Shown here one piece after another: positions 2,755 to 4,148 of a stretch of 14,936 nt of DNA. The stretch is from NCBI RefSeq assembly GCF_003334765.1, contig NZ_QOWT01000054.1; one strand, given 5' to 3'. The notes beneath the pieces were generated by a model. The model saw nothing but the letters and a program-made list of their open reading frames with translations. It did not search any database and had not been told where the DNA came from. This stretch comes from Escherichia coli. GTDB taxonomy: Bacteria > Pseudomonadota > Gammaproteobacteria > Enterobacterales > Enterobacteriaceae. The first letter of the stretch is position 1. Each line of letters starts with the position of its first letter. A program made the position numbers and the translations under genes.

Positions 2755-3585
2755 TCATAATTTTTGTATCGAGTTGGCCAACCTTTTTTCATTACCAAAT
2801 CGAGTTGTGTAATATCTCTCTTCGATACCATACAGCAAAAGTTTAAGCTCTTCGTCACAAGAAATTTCGAAACAGCCAGTGCCATCATCAAACTTTAATT
2901 TTTCAGAGCAATAATCATTTATATAAGTTAGCATATTCCCCCTGTCACTTACATCCATTTGGTTTAACGTATCCATCGCTAACGCTATTCTTTTTCTGTT
3001 TGGTTTTGAAACATTACATGCTTTATATTCACCAGAGAGAGCAATAAACGACTCCCCCAGAAACTGTTCAACATCCTGTTCTGTTGCCTCTTTATAAAGA
3101 GTATCGATACCATTAAACATGGAAGAAATGGCTGACAAGGATTTAAATATAAGCGTGTCTTTTGCAGCAAGATATACTGCATCCGGGGTCTGGTTAACAA
3201 CCAGACGATTCTTCCCGCTCTCTATCTTTGCTCTATCACCAAGTTCGATCATTTTTTTCTTGAGATATAATGATGGTGTTACCTTCTGAAAATAAAAGTC
3301 ACCACTTTGAAATGAAAAAATAAATGCTATCTTTGAAAAATATTTTTTAGGCAATTCATCATAATTTTTTGAATCAAACTCATCTTTCAAAAAGGATGGG
3401 CAGTATTCCCGTTTACTAAATTCACTGAGACTAAACCAGGAATCTTCATCAAGATTATGATCCGGTGCATACGGAACCAATGAACACACTGATAGATCAA
3501 CCCTTTCAAAAAGGGTATGATCTGAGACAATCTTAAAATATGGTTTTTTCCTGAGACCTTTTGCTTTAACAAATACATTATCCAT
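2755..3585 (-). CDS. Soluble 276-aa protein of an AT-rich two-gene module; candidate defense effector or sensor (KwaB-like by architecture only)
   Basis: ORF with ATG at 3583-3585 and AAGGA 7-8 nt upstream on the minus strand. Start lies 2 nt after the stop of the upstream membrane-protein gene (TAA GA ATG). Region is about 30% GC by spot counts. Lys/Asp/Phe-rich, no TM segments, no catalytic motif recognised by eye. Confidence 0.7.
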   Translation of the reverse strand: MDNVFVKAKGLRKKPYFKIVSDHTLFERVDLSVCSLVPYAPDHNLDEDSWFSLSEFSKREYCPSFLKDEFDSKNYDELPKKYFSKIAFIFSFQSGDFYFQKVTPSLYLKKKMIELGDRAKIESGKNRLVVNQTPDAVYLAAKDTLIFKSLSAISSMFNGIDTLYKEATEQDVEQFLGESFIALSGEYKACNVSKPNRKRIALAMDTLNQMDVSDRGNMLTYINDYCSEKLKFDDGTGCFEISCDEELKLLLYGIEERYYTTRFGNEKRLANSIQKL

Positions 3586-3587
3586 TC

Positions 3588-4148
3588 TTATTTCCTTTCG
3601 ATAAAGGTATAGTTATTAATCCTGAAAGCCATGGGCACTACAATATCTTGCGGTACTTTATACCTATAAGGACTGATAAGAAAAATCGACGCTCCTGTTT
3701 TTGTCTTAATATTATAAAACTCATACCTGAAAACAAGAAACAAAGGATTGAAATATAAGGCCTGAGATAAAAATGTAAAAATAAACAGCACTCCATAAAC
3801 AAAGAACAACGCCCCCCAGTTATTTATACTCAGGGCAACAAAAAAGTACCCCAGATAACTCGGTAAAAAAGAGTTATTCGCATGCTCAACTGAAATCACC
3901 TCACCTTTTTTAAACTCATCTTTTCCCAGCGCAGCACTAAGCACAAGACTGACTTTAGTCAAAACAACAGGTATTAAAAAATAAAAAAGATACGACCCTA
4001 CCTGAGGAATACCACTTAACCACTGTAAACTCTGTTCATGCTGAAAAAAGTAAAACAACGTATATTTCCTTTGCACCAAAAATATAATTATCAACAAAGA
4101 AGTGGCATTGAATGTAAGCAGCAATCTAAAAAGGATGTTAATTATCAT
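3588..4148 (-). CDS. Small integral membrane protein with about four predicted TM helices, first gene of the AT-rich two-gene module (KwaA-like by architecture only)
   Basis: 186-aa ORF with ATG at 4146-4148 and AGGAA about 10 nt upstream. Four long hydrophobic stretches (ILFRLLLTFNATSLLIIIFLV; YLFYFLIPVVLTKVSLVLSAAL; YLGYFFVALSINNWGALFFVYGVLFIFTFL; NPLFLVF). AT-rich like its partner. Confidence 0.7.
   Translation of the reverse strand: MIINILFRLLLTFNATSLLIIIFLVQRKYTLFYFFQHEQSLQWLSGIPQVGSYLFYFLIPVVLTKVSLVLSAALGKDEFKKGEVISVEHANNSFLPSYLGYFFVALSINNWGALFFVYGVLFIFTFLSQALYFNPLFLVFRYEFYNIKTKTGASIFLISPYRYKVPQDIVVPMAFRINNYTFIERK

Follow-up and report, generated by a model that had tools for sequence, protein, structure and literature searches.

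What are the two AT-rich genes that occupy positions 2755-4148 of the minus strand in this 14,936-nucleotide stretch of Escherichia coli DNA (contig NZ_QOWT01000054.1, hereafter the window), which a preliminary description had put forward as either a Kiwa-like or a novel anti-phage system? We conclude with high confidence that they form a complete two-gene anti-phage system of the Kiwa type, which is probably functional and belongs to a remote clade of that family. The Kiwa reading is supported by exclusive hidden Markov model (HMM) and fold matches, KwaA/KwaB anatomy, conserved pairing, purifying selection, a defence context and the RefSeq name. The suggestion of a novel system is not supported, since the pair is a strongly divergent member of the known and mechanistically studied Kiwa, which PADLOC detects and RefSeq half-recognises. 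With this assignment, a recognisable defence system takes the place of two genes that were 'hypothetical' in enteroaggregative E. coli (042, 55989 and their relatives).

Architecture and integrity of the gene pair

The first gene of the pair, which is kwaA-like, spans 3588..4148 and encodes 186 amino acids (aa), and the second, which is kwaB-like, spans 2755..3585 and encodes 276 aa. Both lie on the minus strand and start with ATG, according to the list of open reading frames (ORFs). The junction (3586..3590, minus strand), read directly from the sequence as ...GAAAGGAAATAA GA ATGGAT..., comprises the TAA stop of the kwaA-like gene and 2 nt, followed by the ATG of the kwaB-like gene. The sequence and the ORF list thus agree exactly with the two coupled genes, 2 nt apart, of the preliminary description. 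Since only 2 nt separate the genes, they are probably translationally coupled. An AGGA Shine-Dalgarno-like motif is located within the final codons of the kwaA-like gene, just 5' of the kwaB ATG, and the spacing in relatives is equally tight (-1 to 24 nt).

The G+C content (GC) of 2755-4148 is 34.5%, and the third codon positions (GC3) of the two genes have values of 30% and 37%. On either side, GC rises to 51.0% in ibrAB (853-2714) and to 50.8% in 4401-7011, with GC3 of 53-60% in the neighbouring genes. An AT-rich block between flanks of ~51% GC is therefore present as initially proposed, although the earlier estimate of about 30% for the block was slightly low. The 214 nt directly 5' of the kwaA-like gene (4149..4362, minus strand) form an AT-rich non-coding region, presumed to be the promoter region, which is intact, as window positions 1-4423 are collinear with E. 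coli 042.

Both ORFs correspond to real genes rather than chance reading frames, as each protein has ~1,530 homologous clusters (90% clusters in a set of 5.8 billion proteins) and the ratios of nonsynonymous to synonymous substitution (dN/dS) are low. In comparisons with copies of 93-94% identity, where dS reaches up to 0.36, kwaA has a dN/dS of 0.06-0.13 and kwaB one of 0.14, which indicates that both genes are under purifying selection.

Relationship of the two proteins to Kiwa

A search of 5,027 PADLOC models with the 186-aa protein returns seven matches, all of them KwaA, the best of which (3e-10) covers residues 5-165 of 186. Four hydrophobic segments are evident from Kyte-Doolittle peaks and coincide with AlphaFold helices at residues 2-26, 49-73, 91-107 and 111-128. 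The AlphaFold model (pLDDT 84.8) contains four transmembrane (TM) helices and six strands, where two strands are located within intracellular loop 1 (ICL1; residues 75-77 and 84-89) and four within the C-terminus (residues 143-149, 154-159, 174-176 and 181-184), such that a cytoplasmic beta element is predicted to be built from ICL1 and the C-terminus. This is the layout of the published KwaA protomer, in which TM1-4 are accompanied by a cytoplasmic barrel of six beta-strands that ICL1 and the C-terminus contribute (PMC11785009); the likeness extends to a length of ~185-195 aa. When the model is compared with the PDB using Foldseek, the top six matches are all KwaA chains (9mrx_A, 9mrr, 9mrg), with E-values of 1.6e-4 to 2.2e-3 and TM-scores of up to 0.63, and the following match has an E-value of 1.8. 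RefSeq labels the identical protein WP_000586175.1 as 'KwaA family protein', a recent annotation, and precomputed marks show a weak Pfam PF28043 'KwaA' assignment on relatives with 64-72% identity. No match to the 186-aa protein was obtained from NCBIfam release 20 or from a copy of Pfam-A that lacks PF28043.

The 276-aa protein matches four PADLOC models, all KwaB, with the best match (2.4e-12) aligning residues 36-273 to positions 46-288 of the 292-position profile. It lacks hydrophobic segments (maximum KD19 1.0), and its RefSeq entry (WP_000370895.1) is still named 'hypothetical'. Hydropathy and the AlphaFold models thus bear out the initial view of a four-helix membrane protein followed by a soluble protein of about 280 aa. 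The model of the 276-aa protein (pLDDT 74.5) begins with an alpha/beta domain and ends with a mainly helical one, similar to the published KwaB, where an N-terminal Rossmann-like alpha/beta domain precedes a C-terminal DUF4868 domain (PMC11785009). The preliminary description had suggested comparing a predicted structure of this protein with KwaB; indeed, KwaB chains are the only significant PDB matches. They occupy the top six positions (9mrx_D, 9mtn, 9nyu), with a probability of 1.00, E-values of 1.4e-4 to 1.4e-3 and TM-scores of 0.44-0.55, and are followed by a match at E 0.74. For both models, a gap of more than three orders of magnitude separates the Kiwa chains from the next PDB match.

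The best and only PADLOC matches of the two proteins are therefore to their respective Kiwa counterparts (PDLC00221/00216 for KwaA; PDLC00222/00229/00225/00234 for KwaB), in near full-length alignments. Together with the fold searches and the RefSeq name, these KwaA- and KwaB-specific matches substantiate the Kiwa-like alternative of the preliminary description. As in Kiwa, kwaA is followed by kwaB, and the two genes are co-oriented, tightly coupled and located in a genomic island subject to horizontal transfer.

Several observations weigh against a Kiwa assignment. Identity to the chains of the solved CHARACTERISED KIWA (9mrx, 9mrr, 9mrg, 9mtn and 9nyu; Zhang, Todeschini et al., PMC11785009) amounts to only 14-20% for KwaA and 10-13% for KwaB, and neither phmmer nor two HMM profiles, a narrow one (A1/A2) and a diverse one (A3), retrieved a KwaA or KwaB chain from the PDB sequences, where the matches were at noise level (E ~0.3-1). 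The relationship was therefore tested at the level of the fold, and it is the fold search and the PADLOC HMMs that link the pair to the solved Kiwa. However, the PADLOC scores of the window proteins are modest (38-45 bits), the structural matches reach TM-scores of only about 0.5-0.6 with a large root-mean-square deviation (rmsd), and the KwaB-like model is itself of moderate confidence and shows a large rmsd in its fold matches. The KwaB-like protein is also ~40 residues shorter than the solved KwaB (276 versus 315 aa), and thus the loops that contact KwaA may differ. Neither Pfam-A nor NCBIfam yields a match for the 276-aa protein; unlike for Kiwa, PF16162 (DUF4868/KwaB) goes undetected in it at E<=10, and at E<=1e-3 PF16162 matches 0 of 55 diverse members of the KwaB-like family (best 8e-3, at noise level), so that the caution voiced initially over DUF4868 was well founded. 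E. coli has 110 carriers, and among the ~85 of these whose names were listed, none is a strain with an experimentally tested Kiwa (ECOR8, ECOR12, ECOR49, D9, Ralstonia). Lastly, a promoter/terminator scan of 2600-4500 performed no better than on shuffled sequence (6 sites versus 7.0 expected) and identified no promoter.

With respect to DUF4868, the clade sits at the detection edge of the domain family, not outside the superfamily, because structural neighbours in AFDB grade without a break from the KwaB-like family into 'DUF4868 domain-containing' proteins, some of which are 42% identical to the 276-aa protein. UniProt labels relatives of 27-42% identity as DUF4868, and the matching PADLOC KwaB models are described as 'DUF4868 domain'. 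The clade is, moreover, a consistent but remote sister of the PADLOC seed sub-families, since nine distant members from Proteobacteria, Bacteroidota and Bacillota match only KwaA or KwaB models, at 30-73 bits. Scores in this range indicate that this clade was not the source of any PADLOC v2 seed sub-family. The Kiwa of E. coli O55:H7 RM12579 / ECOR49 is reportedly that of Doron et al. 2018. The KwaA proteins of ECOR49 and O55:H7 are 71.6% similar to each other (PMC11785009), and thus both systems are clearly outside this clade.

The solved Kiwa is a supercomplex of KwaA tetramers and KwaB dimers, in which KwaB binds DNA; its protection against phages and against conjugation involves no abortive infection (PMC11785009). 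By homology, the 186-aa protein would form an inner-membrane tetramer (PMC11785009), and the cytoplasmic beta element of this tetramer would dock dimers of the KwaB-like protein. Membrane distortion at phage attachment or DNA ejection would activate the complex, whereupon the KwaB-like protein may bind the entering DNA non-specifically and, once bound, stall replication and late transcription, leaving the cell alive. The 276-aa protein is thus a predicted DNA-binding effector; a basic motif, K194-P-N-R-K-R199, which is conserved in the family and located at the start of a helix in the C-terminal domain, would be compatible with a role in DNA binding.

Breadth of the clade and linkage to type I restriction-modification

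When grouped at 50% identity, the KwaB-like family yields at least 648 clusters, almost all of 270-285 aa, and in many phyla its members are entered in NCBI and UniProt as 'ATP F0F1 synthase synthase'. This name appears to be a propagated annotation error, as no domain match supports it; for the same reason, a transporter-pair or ATP-synthase-related function was rejected. Because a large clade both escapes the Pfam KwaB model and bears a meaningless name, the prevalence of Kiwa is underestimated when it is derived from DUF4868. The database name, together with the lack of a Pfam or NCBIfam family match, would also suit a membrane/cytoplasmic pair outside defence, such as a transporter or signalling module with a chance resemblance to Kiwa. 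We regard such a coincidence as scarcely credible, given that each protein independently and exclusively matches its Kiwa counterpart by HMM and by fold, and that the context is consistently one of defence islands. The pairing of kwaA with kwaB is kept in 15 of the 15 relatives inspected, and relatives are found on plasmids of four phyla; a search of phage genomes revealed no KwaB-like gene.

The closest relatives within the clade usually occupy the final two positions of a type I restriction-modification (R-M) operon, a linkage that may distinguish the clade from the known Kiwa. Of 14 loci sampled from other lineages of this clade, a small set, 10 have the pair attached directly to a type I R-M operon and running in the same direction (the loci bearing on the linkage are L006, L007, L008, L009, L013-L018, L021 and L025). 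It lies directly 3' of the last hsd gene in Arsenophonus, two E. coli lineages, Yersinia, Shewanella, Proteus, Marinospirillum and Photorhabdus, with gaps of -1 to 135 nt. The operon orders are hsdMSR-kwaAB and hsdRMS-kwaAB, often with overlapping stops and starts. The commonest form in E. coli, present in ~80 genomes, is an hsdM-hsdS-hsdR-kwaA-kwaB operon with such overlaps. In a Vibrio locus, DarTG is located between the hsd genes and kwaAB, and in Neisseria gonorrhoeae the order is hsdR-hsdS-kwaA-kwaB-hsdM, where the pair is embedded between hsdS and hsdM. The pair stands alone in the remaining four loci (Marinobacter, Persicobacter, an Apilactobacillus plasmid and a Roseivivax plasmid). 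Relatives are neighbours of type I R-M and of DarTG in islands with an integrase gene; DarT and DarG (DarT and Macro domain) directly adjoin hsd-kwaAB in the Vibrio/Shewanella islands L014 (4460-6155) and L015 (7875-10146).

The window proteins are 64-76% (KwaA) and 56-67% (KwaB) identical to those of the hsd-kwaAB operons of Gammaproteobacteria, with the same gene order, sizes and coupling, and 43-45% identical, for KwaA and KwaB alike, to those of Neisseria. In contrast to these operons, where the pair is terminal or embedded, the window copy adjoins ibrAB and is without hsd genes. Indeed, no hsd gene or remnant was found in window positions 1-14936, either by tblastn with ten Hsd proteins from related loci and a macro-domain protein, or by blastn of the kwaA upstream region against the related loci. 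A literature search on an association of Kiwa with type I R-M and on the gonococcal locus returned nothing relevant, and the linkage is absent from the Kiwa paper (PMC11785009).

The recurrent joining of this clade to type I R-M suggests a functional coupling that is open to testing. One form that such a coupling could take is that the clade, albeit homologous to Kiwa, is an accessory module of type I R-M that holds or presents incoming DNA at the membrane for Hsd, or that regulates restriction, in which case the orphan copy in the window would be incomplete or re-purposed. The 10 of 14 joined loci, with gaps of often -1 to 2 nt, the embedded gonococcal pair and the five-gene operon of ~80 E. 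coli genomes are in line with such a role. We nevertheless consider it improbable, as the pair occurs alone in four sampled loci and the orphan lineage of the window, which has neither hsd genes nor their remnants, maintains both genes intact and under purifying selection. Furthermore, R-M operons often hold clustered or hitch-hiking defence genes that do not depend on them functionally, and the characterised Kiwa systems function as two genes (PMC11785009). A related possibility, which we hold to be rather unlikely, is that the clade forms a Kiwa subtype with a function of its own, which arose as the membrane-anchored partner of type I R-M. If so, KwaAB would capture incoming DNA at its site of entry and thereby help or time Hsd-mediated restriction, and the window copy, detached from R-M and kept alone in a hotspot of defence cassettes, would amount to a natural experiment.

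The ibrA/T6SS-remnant slot and its surroundings

The Kiwa-type pair of the window is rare in E. coli, being present in 27 of 5,426 complete genomes at >=93% nucleotide identity. In every copy inspected, it resides between ibrA and VasL/ImpA remnants of a type VI secretion system (T6SS) within a tRNA-Phe/integrase island. On one side, 40 nt downstream of kwaB, are an ibrB-like and an ibrA-like gene (853-2714, minus strand), encoding ParB-like and PAPS-reductase-like proteins. On the other side are remnants of TssA/ImpA, VasL and TssJ, with the VasL remnant starting at ~4363. The neighbours are thus as initially described, namely T6SS remnants and an ibrAB-like pair. We note that IbrA itself has weak PADLOC matches to BrxP (2.4e-7) and DndC (2.6e-4).

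Homology to the Kiwa-less strains UTME-12 and S88 ends at window position 2672, which is 14 codons inside ibrA, and thus the first 14 codons of ibrA travel with the cassette. On the basis of this break and the GC profile, the exchanged unit in the slot corresponds to the low-GC cassette at 2673..4362 (minus strand). In Kiwa-less E. coli genomes with an ibrA of 99-100% identity, the slot holds a nuclease of the OLD family (PADLOC Old, 1.2e-67) and a 214-aa protein, the latter with no PADLOC match; this alternative cargo is equivalent to window 2673-4362 and spans 5456-8174 in L019 and 5451-7737 in L020. Because Kiwa-less genomes carry OLD-nuclease cargo at this position, the slot between ibrA and the remnants of the decayed aai-type T6SS is a site of defence-cassette exchange. 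The Kiwa cassette would have entered this recombination slot of the tRNA-Phe island, between ibrA and the decayed T6SS genes.

The cassette has also been lost. In O104:H4, a single deletion extends from the middle of ibrB, the 5' part of which is missing, through ibrA, kwaB, kwaA and the T6SS remnants (L003 1353-1940, 2011C-3493), whereas 55989, a relative of O104:H4, retains ibrAB, kwaAB and the T6SS remnants. This bears on differences in phage susceptibility between 55989, with Kiwa, and the O104:H4 outbreak strains that lost it. The low frequency of the pair, its deletion in O104:H4 and the OLD cassette found elsewhere uphold the initial interpretation as a horizontally acquired, accessory and variable insert.

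In the mouse isolates E. coli M1 and M3, kwaA is cut to 162 aa in a locus that is ~43 bp shorter, and kwaB is intact (M3: L010 6869-7357), which suggests occasional decay of the system. Such truncation, the O104:H4 deletion and the absence of an identified promoter would be expected if the pair were a decaying, non-functional passenger of a degraded island, as would surroundings rich in pseudogenes, deletions, T6SS remnants and insertion sequence (IS) fragments, where several strains with intact kwaAB have a frameshift or truncation in ibrA. That the pair is such a passenger is, however, very unlikely: the window and almost every one of the 27 carriers have both reading frames intact, even next to a broken ibrA, the dN/dS of 0.06-0.14 was obtained at dS up to 0.36, and the 214-nt upstream region is preserved.

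Two deletions distinguish the window from E. coli 042, both outside the kwaAB module, and the exact arrangement of the window is found in none of the complete E. coli genomes of the collection. The first, of 828 bp at window position 4423, removed most of VasL and POTRA pseudogene remnants and left the kwaA upstream region untouched; an N-terminal remnant of ImpA/TssA at 4401-4901 lies beyond this deletion as viewed from kwaA. The second, of 3.2 kb at window position 6527, eliminated genes for a GIY-YIG nuclease, a YdcA-family protein and tssE, as well as the N-terminal region of a helicase, and thereby gave rise to a chimeric ORF of 561 aa (5326-7011, minus strand). Residues 14-156 of the chimera correspond to the T6SS lipoprotein TssJ (TIGR03352, 8.8e-25), and residues 163-560 to a NERD+UvrD candidate defence helicase (PADLOC C3a187, 3e-98), located 1.2 kb from the pair.

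A second low-GC block (30-40% GC) is located at ~10950-13300 and includes an ORF of 339 aa on the plus strand (12242-13261). This ORF corresponds to the hypothetical protein WP_001388379.1 of O104:H4 and DLI.5a, adjoins an IS1 fragment and a GTPase-family (YeeP-like) gene, and is likely to be another horizontally acquired gene.

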